Assembly (NCBI GenBank): GCA_036679605.1
Contig: JAZDCZ010000038.1
Span: forward strand, 1 to 52,330
Reading direction: 5' to 3'
From: Gemmatimonadota bacterium
GTDB taxonomy: Bacteria; Gemmatimonadota; Gemmatimonadetes; Gemmatimonadales; GWC2-71-9
Length of the DNA stretch: 52,330 nucleotides
Below are positions 1-45,131 of this stretch, in pieces. Position 1 is the first letter of the stretch, and each line of letters opens with the position of its first letter. Both the position numbers and the translations under genes were made by a program. Below the pieces are notes generated by a model that made no database searches, was not told where the DNA came from, and worked only from the letters and a program-made list of their open reading frames with translations.

Positions 1-48
1 GTAGCGGTCCGCGAGGGCGGTCGAGAGCTTGGACGTGATCTCGGTCAA
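1..48 (-). CDS. 5' fragment of sixth array copy (K6), Ser/Thr kinase-TM-beta-propeller; runs off the window edge
   Basis: TTG at 48 overlaps the K5 stop (TTGA) and reads (M)TEITSKLSTALADRY, matching the N-termini of the other copies. Confidence 0.85.
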   Translation of the reverse strand, partial: MTEITSKLSTALADRY

Positions 49-2675
49 TTCCCCACCTTCGCCTTCAACTCCTCGAAGAAGTTCTCGACCACGATCAACT
101 CGCTCGCCTCCTGCCCTCCGAGATTCCTTATCATCACGAACCGCTGATCGTCCGGTGTCACATCGTAGAACGGATGTCCCAAGGACCTGCGAAACCCTTG
201 TATTGAAAACAGCACCCGCCGTTCGCCAGTCACAAACGTGGCTCCCGGCAATACCTCTACAACCATCAAGCTCCCGCTTCCCTTGTAGAATAGCTCCCGC
301 CCGCTGTGTGCCCACACGGGCTCAGTTCCTCCGTTCGTCGAGACCAGCCACCTCCCATCATTCGTGTTGGGGAACGGGCGCACGTAGACCTCACGGCGGC
401 CTGCCTCGTTAGAGGCGTAAGCCAACCACCGGCCATCCGGTGACACCGCCGGCGAGGTCTCCTCAAACTCCGTCGCCACCAACGGCACCGGCACACTGTC
501 CCCCCCGACGCGGAGCGCGTACAAATCACGGCTCTCCACATTCACCCGGTACACGAGCCACTCCCCATCGGGGGAGTACGTCACCTGCCAAATGGGCTGC
601 TCCTCGTCCAGCAGCAACTCGGCCTGTCCACTCCCGTCCGCCCGCCGCACATAGAGATCACGATTGTCCCCGCGAGTCGACACGAACGCCACCGACCGCC
701 CATCGGGCGTCCACGCTGGCCGGAAATTCTCCGTGCCCGTGAACGTGAGTTTCGGGAGCGGTCCCTGATCCAACTCTTTGATCCAAATCTGTGTCTCGTC
801 GTTCGCATTGATGGTCACCGCCAGTTGCTTCCCGTCCGGCGAGAGCTTCGGAAAACCGAAGTCCTCCGTCCAACCGGGGTCGATTTCCTCCGCCGTCCCG
901 TCCCGCGTCACCCACACCACCTCCGCAAGCCCGCCGCCTACTACGCCGCCGCGAGGTCCATCATACCGGCAAAACTGACCCGCAGACCCTCCACGAGGGC
1001 CACAGCGTCACCCGTCACCGCCAGTGTAGTCTCATCGAACGGCACCACCATCAGCGTCCCGTCCGCTGTCACGTACAAGAGATGGCCCGACGCGGCATAC
1101 CGCGCCCGCACCCCTCGCAGCAACACGGTGTGCGTGCCCGTCGCGAGGTCGGCCACGGCGATGTCCCACTCGGTAAGGTTCGCCAGCCCCCCACGTCGCA
1201 CCGAGAACACGACGCCCCGGCCACCGGGGAGCGCCTCGGGCCACATGTGCTCTAGTTCGCCCTGCGTGGTGTCCCTCATCGTCACGACCTCCGGCGCACC
1301 ACCACCTTCCGCCACACGCACCAACCCGTCACCGGGGAGGCTCCCGTCGAAGTAGAGGTAGCCGTCGGACCCCCATGACCCACCCCAAAATCCAATACCG
1401 GAATCGGCGATGGTGATCGGGGGACCGCCGCCGAGCGATGCCACCCGCCACACACCCTCACCCTCGACGAAGAACCCCACCCGCGATCCATCGGGTGAGA
1501 AGAACGGGTTATTGGCTACCTCCGTGCCCGGCAGCGGGGTGGCGTGGAGTTGATCCAAGTCGCGCACCACCAGCCGGGAGTTCTGTTCACCCGCTCCTTT
1601 ATACACCAATCGTGATCCGTCCGGCGAGACCGCCACTAGTGACCCGCCGCCAGTGGACAGCGCCTCCTCCTCCGGTAACGCGATGCTGTAGCGCGAAACG
1701 GGCTTCGGCACTTCCGGTTGAGGCCGAGAAATCGCCCATACGAACAGCACCGTCATCACCGCCGCGAGCATCGCGACGGCAGCAAACGGCACCGCCAATC
1801 GCTGTCGCCAAATGCCGGCTGGGCCACCCACCATTCCGGCCTGTGTTGTGGGAAGCGAGAACGCGGGATTGGTCAACGCTTCCGCAAACTTGGCAGCACT
1901 CTCGAACCGATCCGCCGCCAGCTTCTCCAACGATTTGGTCGTGGCGGCGGCGACATGGGGCGGGACCGACTTCCGCAACGCCGTCACGGGCTGCACATCT
2001 TCCGCGACGATCTTCATGATGATCTGCTGCGCCGAGTTGCCCATGTGCGGCGGTTCGCCCGTCAACATCTCGTAGAGCACACTGCCGAGGGAGTAAATGT
2101 CCGACCGTGCAGTGAGGTCCTTCTCGGCTGTCGCTTGTTCGGGACTCATGTAATGCGGTGTGCCGAGGGACAGGCCCGTCTCCGTCATACGCCCACCCGC
2201 TGCCGCGCTCACTGCCAAAGCGATCCCGAAGTCCGCCACCATGGGACGGCCCTCGTGGAGTAGGATGTTCTCTGGCTTTATATCTCGATGGATGACGTTC
2301 TGTCGATGGGCGTAGTCGAGGGCGTCCGCGATGGCGGTGGTGATGTTGACCGCTTCCTCGATGCCGAGTTGCGTTTCGCGGTTCAGCTTGTCGCGCAGTG
2401 TCTCGCCGTCGATGAACGGCATCACGTAATACAGGAAGCCATCGGCTTCCCCCGAATCGAACAGGGGCAAAATGTGCGGGTGTTGGAGATTGGCGGTGGT
2501 CGTGATCTCCTGCACGAATCTTTCAGCGCCAAGCACCGCCGCGAGTTCGGGCCGCAGCACTTTGACCGCTACCTTGCGCTTGTGCTTGAGGTCCTCGGCG
2601 AGGTAGACGGTCGCCATGCCGCCTTCGCCCAAGTGGCGTTCGATCTTGTAGCGGTCCGCGAGGGCGGTCGAGAGC
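45..2675 (-). pseudogene. Array copy K5: Ser/Thr kinase-TM-TolB/PD40-like propeller, broken as assembled (ORFs 941-2632 and 45-920)
   Basis: Kinase motifs are intact (GEGGMATVY, VAVK, HRDIKPEN, DFG, GTPHYMSPEQ). The start codon is lost in a 28-bp deletion at 2675/2676, and a ~34-bp deletion near 951 relative to K4 shifts the frame. Both could be assembly artefacts. Confidence 0.75.
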
Positions 2676-5333
2676 CTTCGCCTTCAATTCCTCGAAGAAG
2701 TTCTCGACCACGATCAACTCGACTGCTTCCTGCGAACCGGGATTCCGTATCATTACGAACCGTTGATCGTCGGGCGTCACGTCGTACCGTTGATGGTTGC
2801 GGCTCGTGCGAAACCCTTGTGTTGAAAACAGCACCCGCCGTTCTCCGGTCACAAAGGTGGCTCCCGGTAAAACCTCCACCGACATCAGGCTCTGGCCTCC
2901 CCGGTAGAACAACTCACGCCCGCTGTGCGCCCACACGGGCTCCAGCCCTCCATCGGTCGAGACCTGCCACTTGCCATCATTCGTGTTGGGAAACGGGCGC
3001 ACGTACACCTCCCGCTGGCCCGATTCGTTCGAGACATAGGCCAACCACCGGCCATCTGGAGACACCCGAGGGGCGGTTTCAAGGAACTCCGTCGCCACCA
3101 ACGGCACCGGCACACTGTCCACCCCGATGCGTAGCGCGTACAGATCAGGGCTCTCTGCGTTCACCCGATACACCAGCCACTCCCCATCGGGGGAGTACGT
3201 CAGCATCCCAATGGACTGCTCCTCGTCCAGGAGCAACTCGGCCTGACCCGTCCCGTCCGCCCGCCGCAGATAGAGGTCCTCATTGTCCCCGCGATTCGAC
3301 GAGTAGGCCACCGACCGCCCATCGGGCGTCCACGCTGGCCGAAAATTCTCCGTGCCCGTGAACGTGAGTTTCGGGAGCGGCCCCTGATCCAACTGTTTGA
3401 TCCAAATCTGTTCCTCGTCGTTCGCACGGATGCTCACGGCCAGTTGCATCCCGTCCGGCGAGAGCCTCTGAGAACCGAAGTCCCCCGTCCATCCGGGGTC
3501 GATCTCCTCGGCGGTCCCGTCCCGCGTCACCCACACCAACTCCGCAAGCCCGCTTCCTGTTACGCCGCCGGTCGTGTAGAACAGCGTCCCCGTCGCGGAG
3601 ACAGCGAGGTCCATCATACCGGCGAACCTGACCTGCAGATCCTCCACGAGGGCCACCGCGTCACCCGTGAGCGCCAGCGTCGTTTCATCGAATGGCACCA
3701 CCATCAGCGTCCCGTCCGCCGTCACGTACAAGAGATGGCCCGACGCGGCATACCGCGCCCGGACCCCTCGCACCAGCACAGTGTGCGAGCCCGTCGCATG
3801 GTCAGCCACGGCAATGTCCCACTCGGTGAGGTTCGCAAACCCCCCACGCACCACCGAGAACACGACGCCCCGGCCACCGGGCAGCGCCTCGGGCCAAATG
3901 TGTCCTTGTTCGCCCTGCGTGGTGTCCCTCATCGTCACCGCCTCCGGCGCACCGCCACTTTCCGCTACACGCACCAGCCCGTTGCCGGGGAGGTCCCCGT
4001 CGAAGTATAGGTAGCCGTCGGACCCCCATGACCCACCCCAAAATCCAATACCGGAATCGGCGATGGTGATCGGGGGGCCACCGCCGAGCGATGCCACTCG
4101 CCACACACCCTCACCCCTGGCGAAGAACCCCACCCGTGATCCATCGGGTGAGAAGAACGGGTTAGACGCTCCCTCCGTGCCCGGCAGCGGGGTCGCGTGG
4201 AGTTGATCCAAGTCGCGTACCAACAGCCGGGAGTTCTGTCCACCCTCTCCGAGATACACCAATCGTGATCCGTCCGGCGAGACCGCCACTAGTGACCCGC
4301 CGCCAGTGGACAGCGCCTCCTCCTCCGGTATCGCGACGCTGTAGCGCGAGACGGGCTTCGGGATCGGGCGTAGCCAGCCCCACAGCGTGGTGATCAGGAA
4401 CAGCGCCATGCCAGCGGCGAACCCGACGGTCCAGCGATTCCACGGACCGCTTGCTGGTGCACCCGCCATCGCTGTCCCCGGTGCGGTAGGCAACGTGAAC
4501 GCCGGGTTCGTCAGCGCCTCGGCAAACTTGGCCGCACTCTCGAAACGATCCGCCGCCAACTTCTCCAATGACTTCGCAACGGCAGCAGCCACGTTGGGCG
4601 GCACCGACTTCCGCAAGGCCGTCACCGGCTGCACATCTTCCGCTACGATCTTCATGATGATCTGTTGCGCTGACGAACCGACGTGCGGTGGGCTCCCGGT
4701 CAACATCTCGTAGAGCACACTGCCCAGCGAGTAGATGTCCGAGCGGTTAGTGAGATCCTTCTCGGCGGTCGCTTGCTCCGGCGACATATAGTGTGGTGTG
4801 CCGAGCGAGAGCCCCGTCTCCGTCATCCGCCCTCCCGCTGCCGCGCTCACTGCTAAGGCGATCCCAAAGTCGGCCACCATCGGTCGGCCATTATGGATCA
4901 GGATGTTTTCGGGCTTGATGTCCCGGTGAATCACGCCTTGGCTGTGAGCATAGTCTAGCGCGTCTGCAACGTCGGTGGTGATGTTGACCGCTTTCTCGAT
5001 GCCGAGTTGGGTTTCCCGATTCAGCTTGTCGCGCAGTGTCTCGCCGTCGATGAACGGCATCACGTAATAAAGGAAAGAGTCCGCCTCTCCCGAATCGAAC
5101 AATGGCAAAATGTGCGGGTGTTGTAGATTGGCGGTGGTCGTGATCTCCTGCACGAACCGTTCGGCCCCGAGCACCGCTGCGAGTTCGGGTCGCAGCACTT
5201 TGACGGCGACCTTGCGCTTGTGCTTGAGATCTTCAGCGAGGTAGACGGTCGCCATACCACCTTCGCCCAGATGGCGTTCGATCTTGTAGCGGTCGGCGAG
5301 GGCGGTCGAGAGCTTGGACGTGATCTCGGTCAA
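2523..5333 (-). CDS. Array copy K4: Ser/Thr kinase-TM-TolB/PD40-like propeller; native stop missing, reads through to 2523
   Basis: TTG start at 5333 overlaps the K3 stop. Full kinase, TM (WTVGFAAGMALFLITTLWGWL) and repeated SPDG/TPDG blades. Homology ends at EELKAK near 2676, followed by an out-of-frame tail. Confidence 0.85.
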   Translation of the reverse strand: MTEITSKLSTALADRYKIERHLGEGGMATVYLAEDLKHKRKVAVKVLRPELAAVLGAERFVQEITTTANLQHPHILPLFDSGEADSFLYYVMPFIDGETLRDKLNRETQLGIEKAVNITTDVADALDYAHSQGVIHRDIKPENILIHNGRPMVADFGIALAVSAAAGGRMTETGLSLGTPHYMSPEQATAEKDLTNRSDIYSLGSVLYEMLTGSPPHVGSSAQQIIMKIVAEDVQPVTALRKSVPPNVAAAVAKSLEKLAADRFESAAKFAEALTNPAFTLPTAPGTAMAGAPASGPWNRWTVGFAAGMALFLITTLWGWLRPIPKPVSRYSVAIPEEEALSTGGGSLVAVSPDGSRLVYLGEGGQNSRLLVRDLDQLHATPLPGTEGASNPFFSPDGSRVGFFARGEGVWRVASLGGGPPITIADSGIGFWGGSWGSDGYLYFDGDLPGNGLVRVAESGGAPEAVTMRDTTQGEQGHIWPEALPGGRGVVFSVVRGGFANLTEWDIAVADHATGSHTVLVRGVRARYAASGHLLYVTADGTLMVVPFDETTLALTGDAVALVEDLQVRFAGMMDLAVSATGTLFYTTGGVTGSGLAELVWVTRDGTAEEIDPGWTGDFGSQRLSPDGMQLAVSIRANDEEQIWIKQLDQGPLPKLTFTGTENFRPAWTPDGRSVAYSSNRGDNEDLYLRRADGTGQAELLLDEEQSIGMLTYSPDGEWLVYRVNAESPDLYALRIGVDSVPVPLVATEFLETAPRVSPDGRWLAYVSNESGQREVYVRPFPNTNDGKWQVSTDGGLEPVWAHSGRELFYRGGQSLMSVEVLPGATFVTGERRVLFSTQGFRTSRNHQRYDVTPDDQRFVMIRNPGSQEAVELIVVENFFEELKAKALDRPRGPLQDRTPLGRRRHGDRLPRRGPQAQAQGSGQSAAARTRGGAWR

Positions 5334-8042
5334 TTCCCCACCTTCGCCTTCAACTCCTCGAAGAGGTTCTGGACCACGATCAACTCGCTCGCTTCCTGCC
5401 CTCCGAGATTCCTTATCATCACGAACCGCTGATCGTCGGGTGTCACGTCGTATTGCTGATGGACGTTGTTTGAGCGGTAACCCTGAGCCGAAAACAGCAC
5501 CCGCCGCTCGCCGGTCACAAAGGTGGCTCCCTGCAATACATCCACCGACATCAGGCTCTGCCCTCCCCGGTAGAACAACTCCCGCCCGCTGTGCGCCCAC
5601 ACGGGCTCCTGCCCTCCATCGGTCGAGACCTGCCACCTGCCATCATTCGTGTTGGGAAACGGGCGCACGTACACCTCCCGCTGGCCCGACAAGTTCGAGA
5701 CATAGGCCAACCACCGCCCATCTGGAGACACCCGAGGGGCGGTTTCAAAGAATTCCGTCGCCACCAACGCCACCGGCACACTGTCCACCCCGACGCGGAC
5801 CGCGTACAGAAAATTGTCGCCTACTTCGCCCCACCGATAGATCAGCCACTTCCCATCAGGGGAGTACGTCACCTCCCAAATAGGCAGTTCCTCGTCCAGC
5901 AGCAACTCGGCCTGTCCAGTCCCGTCCGCCCGCCGCACATAGAGATCACGATTGTCCCCGCGATTCGACGAGAAGGCCACCGACCGCCCATCGGGCGTCC
6001 ACGCGGGCCGGAAGTTCCCCGTGCCCGTGAACGTGAGTTTCGGGAGCGGCCCCTGATCCAACTGTTTGATCCAAATCTGTTCCTCGTCGTTCGCACGGAT
6101 GCTCACTGCCAGTTGCTTCCCGTCAGGCGAGAGCTTCGGAAAACCGAAGTCCTCCGTCCAACCGGGGTCGATTTCCTCCGCCGTCCCGTCCCGCGTCACC
6201 CACACCACCTCCGCAAGCCCGCCGCCTACTACGCCGCCGCACCCACACCACCTCCGCAAGCCCGCCGCCTACTACGCCGCCGGTCGTATAAAACAGCGTG
6301 CCCGTCGCGGAGACAGCAAGGTCCATGGTACCGGCAAACCCGACCCGCAGACCCTCCACGAGGGCCACCGCGTCACCCGTGAGCGCCAGTGTAGTCTCAT
6401 CAAACGGCACCACCATCAGCGTTCCGTCCGCCGTCACGTACAAGAGGTGCCCCGATGCGGCATACCGCGCCCGCACCCCACGCAGCAACACGGTGTGCGT
6501 GCCCGTCGCGAGGTCGGCCACGGCGATGTCCCACTCCGTGAGGTTCGCAGGCCCCCCACGTCGCACCGTGAACACTACGCCCCGGCCACCGGGGAGCGCC
6601 TCGGGCCACACGTGCCGTCCTTCGTTCTGCGTGGTGTCCCTCATCGTCACGGCCTCCGGCGCACCACCACCTTCCGCCACGCGCACCAGCCCGTTGCCGG
6701 GAAGGTTGCCGTCGAAGTACAGGTAGCCGTCGGACCCCCATGAGCCTCCCCCACGCCCTGTACCAGAATCCGCGATGGTGATCGGGGGGCCGCCGCCGAG
6801 CGATGCCGCCCGCCACACACGCTCACCCACAGAGTAGAACCCCACCTTCGATCCATCGGGTGAGAAGAACGGGTTGTTCGCTCCGTCCGTGCCCGGCAGC
6901 GGCGTGGCGTGGAGTTGATCCAAGTCGCGCACCAACAGCCGGGAACCCTGTTCACTCACTCCGAGATACACCAATCGTGATCCGTCCGGCGAAACCGCCA
7001 CTCGTGACTGGTCTTGAAACAGCGCCTCGCCCTCTGGTAGAGCGATGCTGTACCGCGAGACGGGTTTCGGGATCGGGCGCAGCCAACCCCACAGCGTGGT
7101 GATCAGGAACAGCGCCATGCCAATTGCAAGGACGACACTCACGAGCTTCCATGGACCACTCGCTGGTGCACCCGCCACCACTCTCCCCGGCGCGGTGGGC
7201 AGCGTGAACGCCGGGTTCATCAACGCTTCCGCGAACTTCGCTGCACTCTCAAACCGATCCGCCGCCAACTTCTCCAGCGACTTGGTCGTGGCTGCGGCGA
7301 CATGGGGCGGGACCGACTTTCGCAACGCAGTCACAGGCCGCACATCTTCTGCCACTATCTTCATGATGATCTGCTGCGCTGAGTTGCCCATGTGCGGCGG
7401 TTCGCCCGTCAACATCTCATACAGCACACTGCCGAGGGAGTAAATGTCCGACCGCGCAGTGAGGTCTTTCTCGGCGGTCGCTTGTTCTGGCGACATGTAA
7501 TGTGGGGTGCCCAACGACAGACCAGTCTCCGTCATCCGCCCACCCGCTGCCGCGCTCACGGCCAAGGCAATGCCAAAGTCCGCCACCATCGGGCGGCCTT
7601 TGTGGATCAGGATGTTTTCTGGTTTGATGTCACGGTGAATGACGCCTTCGCCGTGGGCGTAATGCAATGCATCGGCCACGTCTGTCGTGATGGAGACAGC
7701 CTCCTCGATGCCGAGTTGGGTTTCGCGGTTCAGCTTGTCGCGGAGCGTCTCGCCGTCGATGAACGGCATGACGTAATAAAGGAAAGACTCCGCCTCGCCG
7801 GAGTCGAACAGCGGCAAGATGTGGGGGTGTTGGAGATTGGCGGTGGTCGTGATCTCCTGTACAAAACGCTCGGCGCCGAGCACGGCAGCGAGTTCGGGCC
7901 GCAGCACCTTCACTGCCACCTTGCGCTTGTGCTTCAAGTCCTCGGCGAGGTAAACCGTCGCCATGCCGCCTTCGCCTAAGTGGCGTTCGATCTTGTAGCG
8001 GTCCCCGAGGGCCGTGGAGAGCTTGGACGTGATCTCGGTCAA
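5330..8042 (-). pseudogene. Array copy K3: Ser/Thr kinase-TM-propeller, frameshifted by a 43-bp tandem duplication as assembled
   Basis: TTG start at 8042. ORFs 6123-8423 and 5330-6259 join into a full copy if one unit of the 6197-6282 duplication is removed. Confidence 0.75.
6197..6282. repeat. Exact 43-bp tandem duplication
   Basis: cacccacaccacctccgcaagcccgccgcctactacgccgccg occurs at 6197-6239 and again at 6240-6282. Confidence 0.95.
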
Positions 8043-10711
8043 TTCCCCACCTTCGCCTTCAACTCCTCGAAGAAGTTCTCGACCACGATCAAGTCGGTCG
8101 CCTTCTGCTCCCCGACAATCCGAATCATCACGAACCGCTGATCGTCCGGCGTCACGTCGTATTGCTGATGCACGTCGCCCGAGCGATAACCGCGAGCCGA
8201 AAACAGCACGCGCCGTTCGCCGGTCACAAACGTGGCTTCCGCTAAGACTTCCACCACCATCAAGTTCACGCTTCCCTTGTAGAACAACTCTCGCCCGCTG
8301 TGCGCCCATACGGGTTGATTGCCCCCATCGGTCGAGACCTGCAACTTCCCATCGTTCGTGTTCGGAAACGGGCGCACATACACTTCGTACCGGCCCGATT
8401 CGTTCGAGGCGTAGGCCAGCCACCGGCCATCCGGTGACACCGCAGGCGAGGTCTCGTCGAACCCTGTCGCTACGAGCGCCACCACGCTGTCAGCTCCCAT
8501 CCGCCGCGCATAGAGGTCACGCTCACCGGCCTGCCCGCCAACGCGGTACACCAGCCACTCCCCATCGGGGGAGTACGTCACCTCCTCCACTGTCCGCCCC
8601 TCATCTCGCAGCAACTCCGCCTGTGCACTCCCGTCAGCCCGTCGCACGTAGAGGTCGGGATTGTCCCCGCGTTCCGACACGAAGGCCACTGCTCGCCCAT
8701 CCGGCGTCCACGCGGGCCGGTAGTTCAAGGTGCCTGCGAACGTGAGGTTCGACAGCGGTCCCTGATCCAACTGTTTGATCCAAATCTGTTCCTCGTCGTT
8801 CGCACGGATGCTCACGGCCAGTTGCATCCCGTCCGGCGAGAGCCTCAGAGAACCGAAGTCCCCCTTCCAACCGGGGTGAATCTCCTCCTCCGTCCCGTCC
8901 CGCGTCACCCACACCAGCTCCGCAAGTCCGCCTTCTTCCGCACGCCCGGTCGTGTAGAACAGCGTACCAGTGGCGGAGACGGCAAGGTCGATATTGCCAA
9001 AGACCCCGACCCGCAGACCTTGCACCAGCGACACCGCGTCACCCGTGAGCGCCAGTGTCGTCTCATCAAACGGCACCACCATCAGCGTCCCGTCCGCCGT
9101 CACGTACAAGAGGTGACCGGACGCGGCATACCGCGCCCGCACCCCTCGCAGCAACACGGTGTGCGTGCCCGTCGCAAGGTCGGCCACGGCGATGTCCCAC
9201 TCGGTGAGGTTCACATCCCCCCCACGTCGCACGGAGAACACGACGCCCCGTCCACCGGGGAGCGCCTCGGGCCACAAGTGCGCTTGTTCACCCTGCGTGG
9301 TGTCCCTCATCGTCACGACATCAGGCGCACCACCACCTTCCGCCACACGCACCAGCCCGTTGCCGCGAAGGTTGCCGTCAACGTAGATGTAGCCGTCCGA
9401 CCCCCATGAGCCTCCACCACGCCCTGTACCGGAATCGGCGATGGTGATCGGGGGACCGCCGCCGAGCGATGCCGCCCGCCACACATTCTCACCTACGACG
9501 AAGAACCCCACCCGCGATCCATCGGGTGAGAAGAACAGGGACTCCGCGTCGTCCGTGCCCGGCAACGGCGTAGCGTGGAGCTGATCCAAGTCGCGCACCA
9601 ACATCCGGGAGTTCTGTTCACCCTGTCCGAGATACACCAATCGTGATCCGTCCGGCGAGACCGCAATACGTGACCCGAAGCCAGTGAACAGCGCCTCCTC
9701 CTCCGGTAACGCGACGCTGTACCGTGAGACGGGTTTCGGGATCGGACGGAGCCAGCCCCACACTGTGGTAAATAGCAGCACTGCCGCGAGCACTGCGAAC
9801 GGAACGGCCAACCGCTGTTTCCAACCACTTCCCGCTGCCGGAGTAACCGCTGTCCCCTGCGCAGTGGGCAGCGTGAATGCTGGATTGGTCAATGCCTCCC
9901 CGAACTTGGCCGCACTCTCGAAACGATCGGCCGGCAACTTCTCCAACGACTTCGCAACAGCCGCCGCCACATTCGGTGGCACCGACTTCCGTGCCTTCGT
10001 TACCGGCGCTACTTCCTCCGTCACGATCTTCATGATGATCTGTTGCGCCGTGCCCCCGATATGTGGCGGCTCGCCCGTCAACATTTCGTACAACACGCTA
10101 CCCAGCGAGTAGATGTCCGACCGAGCAGTGATGTCTTTCTCCGCAGTCGCCTGTTCGGGACTCATGTAATGCGGTGTGCCGAGCGAAAGCCCCGTCTCGG
10201 TCATCCGTCCACCTGCCGCCGCGCTCACCGCAAGCGCAATCCCAAAGTCCGCTACCACCGGGCGACCCTCGTGAAGCAGAATATTCTCTGGTTTTATATC
10301 TCGATGGATGACGTTGTTTCGATGCGCGTAGTCGAGGGCGTCGGCAATGGCGGTGGTGATGCTGATCGCTTCCTCGATGCCGAGTTGGGTCTCGCGGTTG
10401 AGCTTGTCCCGCAAGGTTTCGCCGTCGATAAACGGCATGACGTAATAGAGGAAAGAGTGCGCTTCCCCCGAATCGAACAGGGGCAGGATGTGCGGGTGTT
10501 GAAGATTCGCGGTGGTGGTGATCTCCTGCACGAACCGCTCGGCGCCCAACACCGCTGCGAGTTCGGGCCGTAACACTTTAACCGCCACCTTGCGCTTGTG
10601 CTTCAAGTCCTCGGCGAGGTAGACGGTCGCCATGCCGCCTTCGCCCAAGTGGCGTTCGATCTTGTAGCGGTCCGCGAGGGCGGTCGAGAGCTTGGCGGTG
10701 ATCTCTGTCAA
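8039..10711 (-). CDS. Array copy K2: intact Ser/Thr kinase-TM-TolB/PD40-like propeller (890 aa)
   Basis: TTG start overlaps the K1 stop. All Hanks kinase motifs, TM LAVPFAVLAAVLLFTTVWGWL, multiple SPDG blade repeats. Confidence 0.92.
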   Translation of the reverse strand: MTEITAKLSTALADRYKIERHLGEGGMATVYLAEDLKHKRKVAVKVLRPELAAVLGAERFVQEITTTANLQHPHILPLFDSGEAHSFLYYVMPFIDGETLRDKLNRETQLGIEEAISITTAIADALDYAHRNNVIHRDIKPENILLHEGRPVVADFGIALAVSAAAGGRMTETGLSLGTPHYMSPEQATAEKDITARSDIYSLGSVLYEMLTGEPPHIGGTAQQIIMKIVTEEVAPVTKARKSVPPNVAAAVAKSLEKLPADRFESAAKFGEALTNPAFTLPTAQGTAVTPAAGSGWKQRLAVPFAVLAAVLLFTTVWGWLRPIPKPVSRYSVALPEEEALFTGFGSRIAVSPDGSRLVYLGQGEQNSRMLVRDLDQLHATPLPGTDDAESLFFSPDGSRVGFFVVGENVWRAASLGGGPPITIADSGTGRGGGSWGSDGYIYVDGNLRGNGLVRVAEGGGAPDVVTMRDTTQGEQAHLWPEALPGGRGVVFSVRRGGDVNLTEWDIAVADLATGTHTVLLRGVRARYAASGHLLYVTADGTLMVVPFDETTLALTGDAVSLVQGLRVGVFGNIDLAVSATGTLFYTTGRAEEGGLAELVWVTRDGTEEEIHPGWKGDFGSLRLSPDGMQLAVSIRANDEEQIWIKQLDQGPLSNLTFAGTLNYRPAWTPDGRAVAFVSERGDNPDLYVRRADGSAQAELLRDEGRTVEEVTYSPDGEWLVYRVGGQAGERDLYARRMGADSVVALVATGFDETSPAVSPDGRWLAYASNESGRYEVYVRPFPNTNDGKLQVSTDGGNQPVWAHSGRELFYKGSVNLMVVEVLAEATFVTGERRVLFSARGYRSGDVHQQYDVTPDDQRFVMIRIVGEQKATDLIVVENFFEELKAKVGN

Positions 10712-13377
10712 TTCTCCACCTTCGCCTTCAACTCCTCAAACAAGTTCTCGACCACGATCAACTCGACTGCTTCCTCTGCACCGAGATTCCGTATCATCAC
10801 GAACCGCTGATCGTCCGGCGTCACATCGTATTGTTGATGATTGCGGTTCGCGCGAAACCCTTGGGTAGAGAACAGCACTCGGCGTTCGCCGGTCACAAAG
10901 GTGGCTCCCGGCAAAACCTCCACCGACATCAGGCTCTGGCCTCCCCGGTAGAACAATTCCCGCCCGCTGTGCGCCCACACGGGCTCCTGCCCTCCATCGG
11001 TCGAGATCTGCCACTTCCCATCATTCGTGTTGGGAAACGGGCGCACGTACACCTCCCGCTGGCCCGACAAGTTCGAGACATAGGCCAGCCACCGCCCATC
11101 TGGAGACACCGCAGGGACGAACTCATCGAACTCCGTCGCCACCAACGGCACCGGCACACTGTCCACCCCGACGCGGACGGCGTACAGATCACGGCTCTCT
11201 GCGATCACCCAGTACACGAGCCATTCTCCATCGGGGGAGTACGTCACTTGCCAAATGGGCTGCTCCTCGTCCAGGAGCAAGTCGGCCTGACCCGTCCCGT
11301 CCGCCCGTCGCAGATAGAGGTCCTGATTGTCCCCGCGATTCGACGAGTAGGCCACCGACCGCCCATCGGGCGTCCACGCCGGCCGGAAATTCACCGTGCC
11401 CGTGAACGTGAGTTTCGGGAGCGGCCCCTGATCCAACTGTCTGATCCAAATCTGTTCCTCGTCGTTCGCTCGGATGCTCACTGCAAGTTGCTTTCCGTCA
11501 GGCGAGAGCTTCGGAAAACGGAAGTCCCCCGTCCATCCGGGGTTGATCTCCTCAGCCGTCCCGTCACGCGTCACCCACACCAACTCCGCAAGTCCACTTC
11601 CAACGCTCCCGGTCGTGTAGAACAGCGTCCCCGTCGCCGAGATGGCCAGGTCCATAATACCGGCAAACCCGACCCGCAGACCCTCCACTAGGGCCACCGC
11701 GTCACCTGTCACCGCCAGCGCGGTTTCATCAAACGGCACCACCATGAGCGTCCCGTCCGCCGTCACGTACAAGAGATGGCCTGACGCTGCATACCACGCC
11801 CGCACCCCTCGCACCAACACGGTGTGCGTGCCCGTCGCAAGGTCGGCCACGGCGATGTCCCACTCGGTAAGGTTCGCCAGCCCCCCACGCGCCACCGAGA
11901 ACACGACACCCCGGCCACCGGGGAGCGCCTCGGGCCAGATGTGTCCTTGTTCGCCCTGCGCGGTATCGATCATCGTCACCGCCTCCGGCGCACCGCCACT
12001 TTCCGCCACACGCGCCAGCCCGTTGCCTGGGAGTTCACTATCGAAGTACAGGTAGCCTTCCGACCCCCATGAGCCGCCCCAGAATCCAATACCGGAATCG
12101 GCGACGGTGATCGGGGGGCCGCCGCCGAGCGACGCCACCCGCCATGTGTCCTGAGCCCAAAACCCCACCCGCGATCCATCGGGTGAGAAGAACGGGTGGT
12201 TCGCTCCGTCCGTGCCCGGCAGCGGTGTGGCGTGGAGTTGATCCAAGTCGCGCACCCAAAGCCGGGAGTTCTGTTCACGCGCTCCCATATACACCAGTCG
12301 TGATCCGTCCGGCGAGACCGTCACCCGTGACCCAAAGCCCGTGAAAAGCGCCTCCTCCTCCGGTATCGCGACACTGTACCGCGAGACGGGCTTCGGTGGT
12401 TCCGGTTGGGGCCGCAGCCAACCCCACAGGCTCGTGATCGTCATCACAACCGCGACGACCGCGAGCGGAACGGCGAACCGTCGTTTCCAGTCACCACCCG
12501 CTGGCAAAATTGCGGTTGCCCCCGGCACTGTTGGCAGCGTGAACGCCGGGTTCGTCAATGCCTCGGCGAACTTTGCTGCACTCTCAAACCGATCCGCCGC
12601 CAACCTCTCCAACGACTTGGCGGTGGCGGCTGCGACATGGGGTGGCACTGACTTCCGCAACTCAGTGACCGGGCGTGCGTCATCGGTCACGATCTTCATG
12701 ATGATCGCCTGCGCTGACCCACCGACATGTGGCGGTTCGCCCGTCAACATCTCGTAGAGCACGCTGCCCAACGAGTAGATGTCCGACCGATGTGTGAGGT
12801 CTTTCTCCGCCGTCGCTTGTTCGGGTGACATGTAGTGCGGTGTGCCGAGGCTTAATCCGGTCTCCGTCATCCTCCCCCCCGCCGCCGCACTCACCGCTAA
12901 GGCAATACCGAAGTCGGCGACCATCGGACGGCCATTGTGGATCAGGATGTTCTCGGGCTTGATGTCGCGGTGGATCACGCCTTGGCCGTGAGCGTAGTCT
13001 AGCGCGCCCGCAATGTCGGTGGTGATGTCTACCGCTTCCTCGATACCGAGCTGTGTTTCCCGATTCAGCTTGTCGCGCAGCGTCTCGCCGTCGATGAACG
13101 GCATGACGTAATAAAGGAAAGAGTCAGCCTCGCCCGAGTCGAACAACGGCAGGATGTGCGGATGTTGGAGATTTGCGGTGGTCGTGATCTCCTGCACGAA
13201 ACGCTCGGCGCCCAAGACCGCCGCGAGTTCGGGTCGCAGAACCTTGACCGCCACCTTGCGCTTGTGCTTGAGATCCTCGGCGAGGTAGACGGTCGCCATG
13301 CCACCTTCGCCAAGATGGCGTTCGATCTTGTAGCGGTCGGCGAGGGCGGTCGAGAGCTTGGACGTGATCTCGGTCAT
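10708..13377 (-). CDS. Array copy K1 (first gene): intact Ser/Thr kinase-TM-TolB/PD40-like propeller (889 aa)
   Basis: ATG at 13377 (MTEITSKLS) aligns with the other copies' starts; same domain motifs. Confidence 0.92.
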   Translation of the reverse strand: MTEITSKLSTALADRYKIERHLGEGGMATVYLAEDLKHKRKVAVKVLRPELAAVLGAERFVQEITTTANLQHPHILPLFDSGEADSFLYYVMPFIDGETLRDKLNRETQLGIEEAVDITTDIAGALDYAHGQGVIHRDIKPENILIHNGRPMVADFGIALAVSAAAGGRMTETGLSLGTPHYMSPEQATAEKDLTHRSDIYSLGSVLYEMLTGEPPHVGGSAQAIIMKIVTDDARPVTELRKSVPPHVAAATAKSLERLAADRFESAAKFAEALTNPAFTLPTVPGATAILPAGGDWKRRFAVPLAVVAVVMTITSLWGWLRPQPEPPKPVSRYSVAIPEEEALFTGFGSRVTVSPDGSRLVYMGAREQNSRLWVRDLDQLHATPLPGTDGANHPFFSPDGSRVGFWAQDTWRVASLGGGPPITVADSGIGFWGGSWGSEGYLYFDSELPGNGLARVAESGGAPEAVTMIDTAQGEQGHIWPEALPGGRGVVFSVARGGLANLTEWDIAVADLATGTHTVLVRGVRAWYAASGHLLYVTADGTLMVVPFDETALAVTGDAVALVEGLRVGFAGIMDLAISATGTLFYTTGSVGSGLAELVWVTRDGTAEEINPGWTGDFRFPKLSPDGKQLAVSIRANDEEQIWIRQLDQGPLPKLTFTGTVNFRPAWTPDGRSVAYSSNRGDNQDLYLRRADGTGQADLLLDEEQPIWQVTYSPDGEWLVYWVIAESRDLYAVRVGVDSVPVPLVATEFDEFVPAVSPDGRWLAYVSNLSGQREVYVRPFPNTNDGKWQISTDGGQEPVWAHSGRELFYRGGQSLMSVEVLPGATFVTGERRVLFSTQGFRANRNHQQYDVTPDDQRFVMIRNLGAEEAVELIVVENLFEELKAKVEN

Positions 13378-13564
13378 GGGGCAATAAGATGCAGTGCCGA
13401 GGCTCAGGTGGCCAGCTATACCCCCGGAACGGTGCTTCCATTCCGAGAGGGACAATTACGTGGACAATCGGCCAAAACGGCCTGATCGTTAGGCCAGGCG
13501 AAAAATAGCCCTGACGACTTAAACGGTTTCGGGGCTACGCCTTACTTGCTACTTTCAAACCCCC

Positions 13565-13646
13565 GCGACCGTGGCGGAATTGGCATACGCGCAGGATTTA
13601 GGATCCTGTGGGGAAACTCATGAGGGTTCGAGTCCCTCCGGTCGCA
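13565..13646 (+). tRNA. tRNA-Leu(TAG)
   Basis: Acceptor stem GCGACCG/CGGTCGC plus discriminator A; D-loop GGAATTGGCATAC; anticodon arm CAGGA-TTTAGGA-TCCTG; long variable arm; T-arm GAGGG-TTCGAGT-CCCTC. CCA is not encoded. Position upstream of tig is typical. Confidence 0.95.
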
Positions 13647-13692
13647 TTAACAACCCTTTCACAAGCTGTGCAGGTTAAATTAACCCTGAACT

Positions 13693-14946
13693 ATGACGGA
13701 AATTCTCATTACAACGGCAAGCGAAGAGCCCGGCGCCCGGAACCTCAAGATAGAAGTTCCCGTTGAGCGGGTCGAGGCGGCCCAAACCAAAGCTGCCCGC
13801 TACTACGCCAAGAAGGTGAAGCTCCCCGGCTTCAGAAAGGGCAAGGTTCCGCTCGGCGTTATCCGCAAGAAGTTCCGCGATGCGATCCGCGAGACGGTAG
13901 TACGGGAACTGATAGGCGAGAGCTGGAAGGCGGCCATCGAAAAGGACGACTTCCAGCCCATAGCTGAACCGCGGGTATCAGACCTCAAGTTCGAAGACGG
14001 CAACCCCATGACGTTCGAGTTCGCGGTCGCCGTGAAGCCAGAGATGAACCTGGAGCGCCTAGGAGGGTTCGAACTCACTCGCAAGGTCCCGCGTGTGACT
14101 GACGAAACCATCGACGCCCAACTCGAGGAACTACGAAGGCAACGCGCCCCATGGGTACCGGTCGAGAGTGGCAATCCGAAGGACGGGGAACTTGCCTCGG
14201 TTACCATAACGCAGCTCGAAGACGCCGAGTCCGAGGACGGGCAGCAGTACCAACTGCTCCTAGGGCAAGGCCAAGCACTACCTGACATCGAAAACAAGTT
14301 GAAAACAATGGAGACTGGCCAGAGTGTCGAGACGACGGTCACATTCCCCGAAGATTTTAGTGATGAGTCGAAGCGTGGCCAGACTCGGCAGGTTCGAATA
14401 GAGCTTCATGAGATCAAACGCCAGGATCTGCCGGACCTTGACGATTCCTTCGCCGGTGAGATCGGCGATTACGACTCGATCGACGCCCTAAAGGTGGCGA
14501 TCCGAGAGGACATGGAAGCCGAGGCCGGACGCGAGGCCGACGCGGCGCTCCGCAGCCGTCTGCTCGAGGAAATAGTCGAGGCCAACTCAGTCGAAGCTCC
14601 GCGACCCATGGTACACCGCGTGTTGAGCGCGTTCGCCAAGGCCTATGAAGTGCCGGACGATCAGGTCGAAAAATTCACGTCAGAATTCACGCCCGTTGCT
14701 GAAGCCCAGGTAAAGCGAGACCTTATCATCAACCATGTTGCCGAGACAAACAAACTCAAGGCCACGGAAGAAGATGTCGATGATCGTATAGCAGAGATCG
14801 CAAAGAAACGAAAGGCCGAACCCGGCCAGGTATACGCCTCACTTCAAAAGGCGAACCGGCTGAACGAAATTGAGCAAAGCATCACCGAAGAAAAAGTGTT
14901 CGCGCACCTATTGGAGCAGTCAACTATCAACGAGGAAACGGACTAA
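13693..14946 (+). CDS. tig: Trigger factor
   Basis: LPGFRKGKVP ribosome-binding signature; lies before clpP-clpX. Confidence 0.95.
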   Translation: MTEILITTASEEPGARNLKIEVPVERVEAAQTKAARYYAKKVKLPGFRKGKVPLGVIRKKFRDAIRETVVRELIGESWKAAIEKDDFQPIAEPRVSDLKFEDGNPMTFEFAVAVKPEMNLERLGGFELTRKVPRVTDETIDAQLEELRRQRAPWVPVESGNPKDGELASVTITQLEDAESEDGQQYQLLLGQGQALPDIENKLKTMETGQSVETTVTFPEDFSDESKRGQTRQVRIELHEIKRQDLPDLDDSFAGEIGDYDSIDALKVAIREDMEAEAGREADAALRSRLLEEIVEANSVEAPRPMVHRVLSAFAKAYEVPDDQVEKFTSEFTPVAEAQVKRDLIINHVAETNKLKATEEDVDDRIAEIAKKRKAEPGQVYASLQKANRLNEIEQSITEEKVFAHLLEQSTINEETD

Positions 14947-14954
14947 ACTAGACC

Positions 14955-15566
14955 ATGGCCAGCATTTTCCCACCGTATGTTATAGAACGGTCCTCCCGCG
15001 GCGAGCGGAGCTACGACATCTTTTCTCGGCTGTTGATGGACCGCATAGTTTTCTTGGGTACGCCCATCAGTGACGACGTATCGAACATAATCATCGCTCA
15101 ACTTCTTTTCCTAGAGGCGGACAACCCCGAACGCGATATCTACATCTATATCAACTCACCAGGTGGTGTTATTTCTAGCGCGCTCGCGATCTATGATACG
15201 ATGCAGCATATCCAGGCCCCTGTTAATACAATCTGCATGGGAATGGCAGCCTCGGCTGGGTCTTTCCTGTTGGTCGCAGGCGAGAAGGGCAAGCGGGCCG
15301 CACTGCCGAATGCTCGAATCATGATGCACCAGCCTTCGGGCGGTGCTCAGGGAACTGCGGCCGACATCGAGATCGTGGCCAAGGAAATCCTCTATGCCCG
15401 CAACCGATTGAACGAGCTATACGCAAAGCACACCGGCCAGTCTATCGAGACGATAGCGCGAGACATGGATCGAGACACCTTCATGTCGGCCGAAGAGGCC
15501 AAGGAATACGGCATAATCGACAAGGTCATTCAACAGAGGAGTGAGCTGCAAGAAGAATCTGCTTGA
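14955..15566 (+). CDS. clpP: ATP-dependent Clp protease proteolytic subunit
   Basis: [26 protein letters not shown] (catalytic Ser), MMHQP (His). Confidence 0.97.
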
Positions 15567-15615
15567 CGCCGAGACGGCCAGAACGCATACTAGGCGCCAA
15601 CTAGAGCATCATTTC

Positions 15616-16866
15616 ATGCCTCAAGACAAACACCTCCGTTGCTCGTTCTGCGGCAAGTCCAAGGACGCCGTCCGGAAATTCATCTCCGGTCCGTCGGTCT
15701 ATATCTGCAACGAATGCATCGCGCTGTGCAATGAGATCCTCGCTGAAGACGAGGAACGCGAGGTCGCGGAGGCGATTACGCATGTCCCAACACCATCTGA
15801 AATCAAAGAGGTGCTGGACGAATACGTCATCGGGCAAGAGAAAGCCAAGAAAACTCTCGCCGTCGCAGTCTACAGCCACTACAAACGCATAAATTCCCAC
15901 ACAACCGGTAGTAGCGAAGTTGAATTGGAGAAATCCAACATACTTCTGCTCGGCCCTACAGGCGTTGGAAAAACCCTGCTGGCTGAGACTCTGGCTCGAA
16001 TTCTCGACGTACCGTTCACGATCGCAGATGCCACGACTCTCACCGAGGCAGGCTACGTCGGCGAAGACGTCGAAAATATTCTCGTTAGGCTCTTGCAGGC
16101 GGGTGAATTCAACGTCAGCGAATGCGAACACGGAATAGTCTACATCGACGAACTCGACAAGGTCGCGCGCAAGAGCGAGAACCCAAGCATCACACGAGAC
16201 GTTTCAGGCGAGGGCGTACAACAGGCCCTGCTAAAGATCTTGGAGGGAACAATTGCGTCGGTACCCCCACAGGGGGGGCGCAAACATCCGCAACAAGAGT
16301 ACATACAGATTGACACGAAGAATATTCTCTTCTTATGCGGCGGCGCCTTTGACGGCTTGGAGAAAATTATCGAGGCCAGAACTGGAAGACGCCGTATCGG
16401 ATTCAGCAAGGAAGAGTTGGAGGCCGGCAAGGCCAAGGAGTTGCAGCAGAATCCTTACCATGATGTCGAGCCCGACGACTTGCTGCGGTACGGATTGATT
16501 CCCGAACTCGTGGGACGACTCCCCTTAACGGTTGCGCTTGAGACGCTGGACGACGCTGCTCTCGTACGAATTCTCCTTGAGCCAAAGAACGCGTTGACCA
16601 AACAGTACAAGAAGTTGTTTGACTTGGAGGATGTCGGCATCACGTTCGATCCGGAAGCACTTCGCGCCGTAGCAGAACGAGCGGTCAAGCGGGGTACCGG
16701 AGCGCGTGGTCTGCGGGCCATCCTCGAGGAAATAATGATCGATATCATGTTCGATATCCCAGACCGAGATGACGTCCGTGAGGTGGTGATAACGAAGGAA
16801 TGTGTAACGGAAGGGCGCCAGCCGATGTTGGTGACTGCACGCGCACGCACGAAGAAGAAAGCCTGA
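15616..16866 (+). CDS. clpX: ClpX ATPase
   Basis: CSFCGK...ICNECI zinc finger, [33 protein letters not shown] loop. ATG at 15616 chosen as start. Confidence 0.97.
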
Positions 16867-27287: not shown

Positions 27288-28919
27288 TTGAACGCATTCA
27301 AACTGCTGAGCACTACAGGCGACCAGTCGGTCGACCTGAAGGAGGGCAAGACGATACTCGTCGGCCGTGCCGTGACGAGCGATTTGCCCATCTACGATCC
27401 GACGGTCTCTCGGCATCATGCAGAGGTGACGATCAGCGGTAGCGGCGCTGGCATAAAGGATCTCGGGTCGAGCAATGGCACGTTCGTCAACGGGGGCCAA
27501 ATTCAGGAGGCGGTGGCTGAGAACGGTGATATCGTCACGTTCGGGCGGGTCGCTTTCAGGCTCATAGAGGTAACGCCGCAAGCCGTTGCAGCTGTTGCGC
27601 CCGATCCAGAGTTCGAACAACCTCCCCCAGGCGCCACGATAGTGAAGCAGGTCGCGGTTTCGGATTCAGGCGGGATCGAGGAGCAAGTCGCGAAGCGACC
27701 CAGTGTCGGGTCACAACTCAAGGTCGAAGGCGAGACACAGGAGGAGCGACAGGCACGTAAGCTCTCGCTGCTACTGGAAATATCCCAGGCTCTGTCGCGA
27801 CAGCAGGAAGTTGACAAGCTTCTGGAGAAAATTGTCGATATCACATTCAAGGTCATGAATGTCGACAGGGTATCAATTCTGATGGTAGAGGGCGAAACCC
27901 AGGAGTTGATCCCGCGCGTCTCGAAGAACCGGTTGGGCGGAGCCGGAGAACACCGACACGTGCCGCAGTCAATCGCACGACGTGCTGTCTCCGAGCGACT
28001 AGCCATTCTGACCGATAACGCAGCCGCTGACGATCGTTTCAGTGGCAAATCGATCGTTGTTCAGAGTGTCCGAAGTGCGATGTGCACTCCGATGCTCAAG
28101 AGTCGCGAGCATAGCCGTAAGGGTGGCGGAGAAGTGCTCGGCATTATTTACGTCGACAGTCAAACGGCGACAGAAGCGTTCAACGATGAAGATCTCGAGT
28201 TCCTCATTGCGTTCTCCGGGATCGCAGCGGTCGCGATCGAGAACAGCCAGCTGACCGATCAAATCCAACGGGAAGCCGTCGTTCTGTCGAATTTTCAACG
28301 GTATTTTGCTCCGAACCTGGCCGAGCAGATCGCTGGTCAGGAAGGAGCCGTTCAGCTCGGCGGGTCAAAGCGAGCCGTAGTCGTGTTCTTTAGCGACATT
28401 CGCGGGTTCACCTCGATGTCGGAGCGGATGGGTCCAGACGATATTGCGACTTTGCTGAACGAGTACTTCACGGAAATGGTGGAGATCGTATTCGAGCACG
28501 GTGGAACGCTGGACAAATTCATGGGCGACGCGATCATGGCACTTTGGGGCGCTCCACTAGCACAGGAGGACGACGCAGATCGTGCGATGCGGGCTGCCAT
28601 CGACATGCAGAGCGTGTTGGCAAAACTGAACGTGAAGTGGGCGGCGGAGGGCCGTGAGCGCGTAGAAATTGGAATTGGTGTTGACCTGGACGACGTCTTT
28701 GCCGGTAACATCGGTAGCGATTTACGACTGGAGTACACGGTCATCGGCGACGCGGTCAACACGGCGTCTCGACTGTGTTCCAAAGCTGGACCGGGCGAGA
28801 TCATCCTTTCCCAGCGGTTCTTCGACCACCTCAAGAAACCGCCAGCCGTAGAGGAACTGGAAGCCCTGCAACTAAAGGGCAAAGCAAAGGACGTTTCGGT
28901 CTACCGAGTGAAGCGATAA
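27288..28919 (+). CDS. FHA-GAF-class III adenylate/guanylate cyclase
   Basis: FHA: VGR...VSRHHA...DLGSSNGTFVNG. Cyclase: FSDIRGFT, DKFMGDAIMA, EYTVIGDAVNTASRL. Confidence 0.9.
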   Translation: MNAFKLLSTTGDQSVDLKEGKTILVGRAVTSDLPIYDPTVSRHHAEVTISGSGAGIKDLGSSNGTFVNGGQIQEAVAENGDIVTFGRVAFRLIEVTPQAVAAVAPDPEFEQPPPGATIVKQVAVSDSGGIEEQVAKRPSVGSQLKVEGETQEERQARKLSLLLEISQALSRQQEVDKLLEKIVDITFKVMNVDRVSILMVEGETQELIPRVSKNRLGGAGEHRHVPQSIARRAVSERLAILTDNAAADDRFSGKSIVVQSVRSAMCTPMLKSREHSRKGGGEVLGIIYVDSQTATEAFNDEDLEFLIAFSGIAAVAIENSQLTDQIQREAVVLSNFQRYFAPNLAEQIAGQEGAVQLGGSKRAVVVFFSDIRGFTSMSERMGPDDIATLLNEYFTEMVEIVFEHGGTLDKFMGDAIMALWGAPLAQEDDADRAMRAAIDMQSVLAKLNVKWAAEGRERVEIGIGVDLDDVFAGNIGSDLRLEYTVIGDAVNTASRLCSKAGPGEIILSQRFFDHLKKPPAVEELEALQLKGKAKDVSVYRVKR

Positions 28920-44479: not shown

Positions 44480-45082
44480 ATGGCGCCCTCCATCGATCTA
44501 GCTACCGCAACCGACCAACAGGTCGTCGAATTAGCTCGGAGCGGCCGGGAAGCGGCTTTCCGCGAACTCGTGCGCCGCTACCAGCGACCGGTTTTCTCGC
44601 TCATCTATCGCATGGTGCGCGATCGCGAACTTGCAGAAGACTTGGCACAGGAAACGTTCATCAAGGTGCTAAACGCGATCGAACGATACCGCTCGGAATT
44701 CAAGTTCTCATCCTGGATCTTCAAGATTGCGAACAATGCGACCATCGACCACCTGCGACGCAAGGAACTCGATACGCTCTCCCTCGAGGGCGGGCCCGAT
44801 GCAACTACGCCAGACCGCATCGAGGCTACGGCACTCAAGATCGGCGATACCACGGAGAGTCCGCTCGAAGAGTTGGAAGCACGCGAGTTGGGATCGGCAA
44901 TAGAACGGGCAATCGCCACCCTCAGACCTGAATACAAGGCATGTATCATATTGCGACACGTCGAGGGACGTCCATACGAAGAAATTTCCGAAATATTGGA
45001 CCTGCCGCTCGGTACTATTAAGACCTACATTCACCGCGCTCGAGCGGAGTTGCGGGAACTCCTGGAACCACTTCGAGACTAG
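44480..45082 (+). CDS. ECF RNA polymerase sigma factor (SigW/RpoE-like)
   Basis: AEDLAQETFIK, FSSWIFKIANN, YEEISEILDLPLGTIKTYIHRAR. Confidence 0.93.
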   Translation: MAPSIDLATATDQQVVELARSGREAAFRELVRRYQRPVFSLIYRMVRDRELAEDLAQETFIKVLNAIERYRSEFKFSSWIFKIANNATIDHLRRKELDTLSLEGGPDATTPDRIEATALKIGDTTESPLEELEARELGSAIERAIATLRPEYKACIILRHVEGRPYEEISEILDLPLGTIKTYIHRARAELRELLEPLRD

Positions 45083-45092
45083 TTAAGGAGAC

Positions 45093-45118
45093 TGAAACTC
45101 TAACGACCAAGGGTCGTA
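45093..45118 (+). promoter_or_regulatory. Second ECF promoter TGAAAC-N16-CGTA between the sigma gene and the putative anti-sigma gene
   Basis: TGAAAC at 45093-45098, CGTA at 45115-45118. Confidence 0.72.
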
Positions 45119-45131
45119 GGATGGCACTAGA

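Follow-up and report, generated by a model that had tools for sequence, protein, structure and literature searches.

The window analysed here, a stretch of 52,330 nt that is the entire contig C311 of a Gemmatimonadota genome (G000), carries at one end a tandem array of receptor-like Ser/Thr kinase genes. Each unit joins a kinase, one transmembrane (TM) segment and an ectodomain predicted to form two β-propellers. The kinase and sensor halves have uncoupled histories, the sensors vary mainly on one face of the modelled propellers, and sensors of this type show low silent divergence across lineages. The best explanation, to which we assign a probability of roughly 0.55, is that many tuned sensors feed one kinase output, within a repertoire of two separately evolving modules.

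Five kinase–TM–propeller units (U1 to U5) occupy the minus strand in head-to-tail order, running from position 13377 to position 1, followed by the 16 opening codons of a sixth kinase (U6, 1–48), cut by the contig end. Because the window is a whole contig, the array runs off its end. Four of the five junctions show a 4-nt overlap between the stop codon of one unit and the TTG start of the next, and a purine-rich run lies immediately upstream. U1 (10708–13377) encodes an intact receptor kinase of 889 amino acids (aa) (Pfam Pkinase 1.5e-47, PD40 1.4e-25), and U2 (8039–10711), also intact with 890 aa, is the source of the modelled ectodomain. U3 (5330–8042) is full length and consists of two open reading frame (ORF) pieces, frameshifted between its two propellers; it contains an exact 43-nt tandem duplication (scar 1, 6197–6282). 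U4 (2672–5333) is complete but for its last codons and stop, and its frame continues into U5 (45–2675), which lacks its first codons. Their junction is without 28 nt present at the other junctions (scar 2, 2670–2680), which removes the U4 stop and the U5 start; a junction 26-mer found at four places is missing here. U5 is further split by scar 3 (945–955), where 34 missing nucleotides cause a frameshift and a stop. The sequence-only reading of five full units plus the start of a sixth is therefore right as to what is present, but only U1 and U2 are uninterrupted.

Every unit consists of a kinase (residues 1–282), a variable linker, one hydrophobic helix near residue 301 and a 565-aa ectodomain, annotated in U1 as a double PD40 propeller. 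The Pkinase match reaches 162–168 bits (cut-off 31.7), and simple hydropathy gives one peak per unit at residues 300–303 (Kyte–Doolittle 1.7–2.5), in agreement with the kinase, single TM segment and ~560-aa ectodomain first proposed. All five kinases retain the catalytic motifs, as had been noted (Gly-loop, VAVK, HRDIKPEN, DFG and GTPHYMSPE). These motifs, with one TM segment ahead of a C-terminal sensor, would place the units among Hanks-type receptor Ser/Thr kinases; threonines are present in the activation segment (RMTETG). A model of the U2 ectodomain from 112 sequences (predicted local distance difference test score 93.8) predicts twelve four-stranded blades. Structural alignment of this model suggests a double six-bladed TolB-like propeller: ectodomain residues 267–543 align with TolB-like propellers (Z 28.8, root-mean-square deviation (rmsd) 2.5, 257 residues), and the remainder plus the C-terminus with the six-bladed PknD ectodomain (1rwi; Z 21.1, rmsd 2.8, 238 residues). 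Top Foldseek rows are tandem-propeller receptors such as LRP6, a likeness of shape only (TM-score about 0.33). From the topology, the ectodomain is expected to be periplasmic.

Named families fit the units only in part. PknD proteins carry a single six-bladed NHL-type propeller, not a 565-aa double PD40 propeller. The Stk1/PknB PASTA family (NF033483) is matched over the kinase part only, at 302–310 bits against a cut-off of 450, and PASTA repeats have no match in the units. TolB family TIGR02800 scores 99–105 bits against 343 over the whole protein, and neither the TolB nor the Pal family cut-off is reached. Homologues are named 'serine/threonine-protein kinase' or 'Tol biopolymer transport component' in databases.

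We compared the two halves among units and among paralogues. Protein identity between units is 90–94% for the kinases and 74–89% for the propellers, and the linker and TM segment are the most variable (25–76%). Silent sites show the reverse order, with silent divergence (dS) of 0.69–1.17 in kinases and 0.18–0.58 in propellers at equal GC content of third codon positions (GC3). The description of a conserved kinase with a variable sensor thus holds for protein and fails for silent DNA sites. Across 27 genes (351 pairs), with U3 and U5 entered by the front half of the ectodomain only, kinase identity did not track ectodomain identity (rho −0.001). In 144 of these pairs, the kinases are at least 85% identical while the ectodomains range from 23 to 90%. 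The kinase nearest to that of U5, for example, lies on contig C301 (96%), in a gene whose ectodomain is 50% identical. The U1–U5 ectodomains form one clade together with a gene from the relative genome G070 (support 1.0), and the five kinases grouped in 0% of 200 bootstrap trees. Along the units, the best-matching paralogue switches from one interval to the next. A test of our own, modelled on the pairwise homoplasy index, gave a recombination signal in both halves (0/300 and 0/1000 permutations as low), a signal that assembly chimeras would equally give.

The sensor variation is concentrated on one side of the model. Among the five units, codons vary at 88 of 173 top-face positions versus 28 of 197 on the bottom face (p = 2e-14), in both propellers, with loop classes derived from the DSSP strands of the model, after removal of two inter-propeller linkers, and drawn after the variation had been seen. 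The top face of a propeller is its peptide-binding side. For nine ectodomains of the array type on one tree, codon model M2a against M1a gave a likelihood-ratio test (LRT) statistic of 77. It was 60 when 59 of 553 codons, those adjacent to gaps, were masked, and 39 with masking and six segment trees (ω2 3.9, 3.8% of sites). The kinase control under the same code gave 0. Nine of the ten selected sites lie on the top face (p = 2e-4); candidate top-face positions in the ectodomain include 151, 174, 316, 360, 473, 521, 522 and 525. We regard this variation on inferred ligand faces, with its positive-selection signal, as a good lead rather than proof. A diversity-generating retroelement was rejected as its source: the variation is spread across many loops, much of it silent, and the 34 window proteins scanned include no reverse transcriptase.

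Sensors of the array type also recur in other genomes. Housekeeping genes of G000 differ in their silent sites (pS) by 0.69–0.80 from G070 and by 0.66–0.81 from its one congener, G001; for tig versus a further relative, G051, pS is 0.64. By contrast, pS is 0.22–0.40 among nine ectodomains of the array type (G000, G070 and G051 sequences), and a tenth, from relative G072, stands at 0.52–0.57. The U2 ectodomain is closer to the G070 gene (pS 0.22) than to its own array neighbours (0.30–0.35). Five of 25 G000 receptors, representing three sensor types, pair with G070 genes at pS 0.22–0.35, with kinases at 0.50–0.56, whereas the other 20 stand at 0.65–0.79. Because ectodomain pS lies far below that of housekeeping genes, the array sensor type appears to be horizontally shared with distant genomes. 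Misbinning does not explain this for two G070 contigs, since the genes flanking the receptor copies are saturated (8/8 on one contig, pS 0.68–0.74). Genes flanking the G051 copy have distant matches only, and in the draft genome of G001 the best full-length ectodomain match is 38%.

The array is one of several in G000 and has a common layout among the relatives examined, which weakens the view of a singular locus. G000 (6.7 Mb, 434 contigs, N50 59.6 kb, completeness 96.5%) contains 107 kinase ORFs, 29 of them with at least 450 aa of U2-type propeller in frame, counts that may be inflated because the assembly is 6.3% contaminated and larger than those of its relatives. Nine of the 29 lie on contig C214, where twelve kinase genes occupy 60 kb (30553–90167), nine with a propeller 28–43% identical to that of U2. 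Contig C383 carries two tandem kinase–propeller genes (11075–16754), one combining the array's sensor type (78–82%) with a deletion in the kinase; C383 starts mid-kinase and could continue the array past base 1 of C311. A different receptor architecture is seen on contig C162 (474–10282), with three tandem kinases of ~1050 aa that have several hydrophobic segments.

Beyond G000, 62 of 121 genomes of the phylum contain an ectodomain match at E below 1e-40, and 72 of the 74 loci closest to U2 with a name belong to Gemmatimonadota. Relative loci were ranked by similarity to U2 and the top 80 of 624 candidates taken; among the 32 that span at least 15 kb, 26 hold at least two propellers and 17 at least three. 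Arrays of 4–8 kinases occur, some on contigs of 0.3–3.5 Mb, and G070 has 13 same-strand kinases within 40 kb. Copy number and position vary among relatives, so the array is not fixed or invariant. The notion of a diversified repertoire applies to the range across the genome (23–90%), and not to the five array sensors, which are close variants of one type (74–89%). The array adjoins a divergent tRNA-Leu and tig-clpP-clpX, and we surveyed the stretches upstream of tig in 20 family genomes (11 of them shorter than 10 kb): a kinase adjoins the tRNA in one and lies elsewhere in the stretch in three more. Together with the absence of any kinase in 19.9 kb upstream of tig in G070, this rules out a fixed locus beside tRNA-Leu and tig. 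The G001 contig stops immediately short of the tRNA. Two loci (L104 and L108, from G040 and G050) have an in-frame TGA inside the tig match, with tRNA-Leu not found upstream. As for mobile vehicles, four viral-contig candidates yielded no confirmed relative, and clear plasmid relatives were found only in Gemmatirosa megaplasmids. Two Gemmatirosa stretches hold one propeller gene each and no array.

We propose that the units act as single-pass receptor Hanks kinases within a genome-wide repertoire of two modules. Purifying selection would hold the cytoplasmic kinase almost constant and recombination would shuffle it between paralogues, while the periplasmic double propeller would vary on its top faces and move horizontally between lineages; the array itself would be one sensor type, amplified and then re-tuned. 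Transcription could begin between U1 and the tRNA: this non-coding leader (13378–13564; matched exactly by a piece, 13371–13610, of sequencing run X1 at depth 15.4) is presumed to be the promoter region because it is the only sizeable non-coding stretch. The sigma-70 consensus occurs 0 times in 1–13700 versus 2.1 expected, and scans for promoters and terminators found no more than in shuffled sequence. The ligand would most probably be a sequence-variable peptide or protein that stems from competitors, predators, phages or a damaged envelope; by binding the top face it would cluster the receptors, upon which the kinases would dimerise and autophosphorylate their activation loop, as excerpts of earlier work describe for PknB and PknD (PMC3601408, PMC6213207). 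Since the kinases are nearly the same, their inputs may converge on shared substrates, namely FHA proteins and possibly extracytoplasmic function (ECF) sigma factors, with PP2C phosphatases resetting the receptors. G000 has nine FHA domains, three PP2C and two strong Sigma70_ECF matches, and a Sigma70_ECF gene abuts a different kinase on contig C212. Direct phosphorylation of sigma factors by other bacterial kinases is reported in the available parts of two studies (PMC13147305, PMC7826278). Neither the tRNA end nor the inter-unit junctions hold a sigma factor gene; the opposite end lies beyond the contig. Elsewhere in the window, a gene at 27288–28919 (plus strand) encodes an FHA-GAF-adenylate/guanylate cyclase protein that may read phosphothreonine; it is conserved in G001 (86%) and G070 (68%).

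A broader view, which we hold only tentatively and consider doubtful, is that Gemmatimonadota possess a modular, horizontally shared repertoire for non-self molecules in the periplasm, with dozens of arms-race sensors recombined onto one interchangeable kinase. If true, a newly acquired sensor would immediately be connected to a shared defence or envelope response. Bacteria would then have an equivalent of the pattern-recognition receptor clusters of plants, and the array would be a snapshot of a sensor type being amplified and re-tuned.

Several observations weigh against the two-module reading. An approximately unbiased test did not reject a single kinase clade (p = 0.089), and the kinase tree is mostly unresolved (1/17 branches starred). 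Low-pS partners exist for only 5 of the 25 G000 receptors among 23 G070 genes, and transfer is not specific to receptors: four accessory genes near a G070 array (a short-chain dehydrogenase, an FG-GAP protein, a triple RidA-like protein and a metallo-β-lactamase-fold gene; L131, 4586–10284) stand at pS 0.11–0.33 to their G000 counterparts on contig C173. The array itself contains no gene for a substrate. SPDG, a structural motif, sits in the bottom loops. Restricted to the five units, the LRT is 20 and drops to 8.8 (p = 0.012) once masking and segment trees are applied, with no site exceeding 0.9. The selection signal therefore stays a lead, because ω averages 0.53 in the top-face class, less than 1, because the codon models are our own code and because the face classes postdate the data. 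A rival reading is redundant or dosage amplification of one receptor type: surface loops would have drifted under relaxed constraint, all copies would sense one cue, and the signal would stem from recombination and multi-base changes. The class average and the weak five-unit signal fit such an origin. So does the pattern of conservation, which among the 112 homologues is lowest in just these loops (entropy 2.2 versus 1.1), and gene conversion is ordinary among paralogues. Yet the kinase, which is recombinant too, gives no signal under the same code, the nine-sequence signal survives segment trees and masking, and top faces hold a larger part of the selected sites than their share would give. 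On balance, we consider redundancy unlikely. TolB is exploited by colicins, and the propellers could likewise be periplasmic docking sites used by toxins or phage proteins, with diversification serving escape rather than sensing. The TolB-like fold and the combination of rapid change on one face with horizontal exchange would suit such a conflict. However, escape favours loss or one altered copy over many intact paralogues (29 such ORFs), the kinases remain constrained (ω 0.04–0.09) and the TolB and Pal cut-offs are not reached, which makes evasion quite improbable.

The integrity of the assembly bears on all of these results. In the present assembly, three units are interrupted, and short-read repeat chimeras, which can mimic recombination and inflate selection tests, are a concern in an assembly with repeat scars. 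The three breaks most probably arose as assembly joins. Scars 1 and 3 resume at one homologous position, where a 114-nt tract without differences between U3 and U5 begins, and scar 2 falls in a tract common to other junctions. The G000 assembly contains 18 other near-perfect adjacent duplications of 30–101 nt. U3–U5 show no further inactivating change and their kinases are still constrained; a comparable short deletion is present in the kinase of the C383 paralogue. Given the three scars, the order and count of units beyond U3 are uncertain, and two of the three segments there each hold an intact junction. Four sequencing runs gave only short contig pieces, none of those listed crossing a scar, and the junction pattern matched one metagenome contig, from which the array is absent. 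Run X1 may be the source sample, hence not independent. Among its listed pieces, five exact ones within U2–U5 have depths of 10.6–14.1, whereas the leader and tig region reaches 15.4–15.7; another is a 407-nt variant of the U2 region with 8 differences at depth 21.5, and none of those listed lies inside the U1 body or spans an inter-unit junction. Strain alleles stitched together, the doubt raised over the first reading, are made unlikely by the kinase dS of 0.69–1.17 and by pieces of four units near flank depth: the units are paralogues. Real paralogues from several loci or co-occurring strains could still have been chained through shared tracts. The scars at repeated tracts, the many G000 contigs that end inside receptor kinase genes, the U2-region variant and the lack of a listed piece spanning the array all point that way. 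Nevertheless, positions 13377 to 6282 are unscarred and include two stop/start overlaps, two further segments each have an intact junction, the kinase dS exceeds what alleles of strains would show, the exact X1 pieces within U2–U5 lie close to the flank depth of 15.7, and relatives have arrays of 4–8 kinases on far longer contigs (0.3–3.5 Mb). We therefore give a largely assembly-made array little credence.

Beyond the leader, tRNA-Leu(TAG) (13565–13646, plus strand) is divergent from the array and is followed by tig-clpP-clpX-engB. The GC3 of the array is 0.76, near the 90–95th percentile of G000, a weak sign as regards horizontal sharing. At 44480–47813 (plus strand), an ECF sigma factor gene precedes genes for two proteins without Pfam matches and a LiaF-like/toast-rack protein, probably an ordinary anti-sigma operon. 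In the same genome, contig C357 contains repeats of about 30 nt with a 61-nt period over 4.4 kb (125194–129620), probably an array of clustered regularly interspaced short palindromic repeats.

Bacterial Hanks kinases are mostly known as few single genes; here they form arrays in a widespread, little-studied phylum. Within these receptors, kinase and sensor have evolved on separate paths, and the sensors have passed between distant lineages while altering the face that probably binds ligand. Should their ligands differ, the sensors would amount to a naturally occurring library of matched receptors that share one output, in which the selected sites would be direct test positions. Because the cultured Gemmatirosa kalamazoonensis has the same kinase–propeller architecture, the family is open to bench study. 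In the literature searched, which lacked most subscription journals, we found no paper on Gemmatimonadota kinase arrays, although the architecture supplement of one survey (PMC2877116) could list such proteins. Kinase–propeller receptors and kinase–PD40 fusions are already known, and PD40 repeats are among the domains most often fused to prokaryotic Ser/Thr kinases, according to the portion of that survey at hand, whose text mentions no arrays, Gemmatimonadota or Acidobacteria cases, module exchange or selection.

The nearest characterised likeness is PknD of Mycobacterium tuberculosis, a Hanks kinase with one TM helix and an extracytoplasmic six-bladed propeller, activated by N-lobe dimerisation as an excerpt of PMC3601408 describes. 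Unlike the array, PknD is a single gene with one propeller; the array has two PD40/TolB-like propellers, a diderm setting and many paralogues, and PknD gave no sequence match to its ectodomain. In Xanthomonas citri PknS-EcfK and Vibrio PknT-EcfP, both from diderms, a receptor kinase whose periplasmic part is a repeat domain signals to a sigma factor, and PknS acts in anti-predator defence, as far as the sections available report (PMC13147305, PMC7826278); in these, one kinase with a TPR sensor lies beside its sigma factor, whereas the array holds no sigma gene. An excerpt of PMC7159879 describes large kinase families in multicellular bacteria, and the array is comparable to the myxobacterial kinase expansions by analogy and not by descent. 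TolB is the best sequence and fold match of the second propeller (E 4e-17; Z 25–29), but the array propeller is membrane-anchored, fused to a kinase and, at 105 versus 343 bits, far below the family cut-off. In plant receptor-like kinase clusters, tandem paralogues combine a conserved kinase with a diversifying ectodomain. The likeness drawn to them by the sequence-only reading holds up as an analogy in its tandem paralogues, conserved kinase and apparently selected ectodomain surface, subject to the caveats on recombination and on our own code. It is again not one of descent, and the array differs from the plant clusters in its operon-like overlapping stops and starts and in the horizontal exchange of its sensors.

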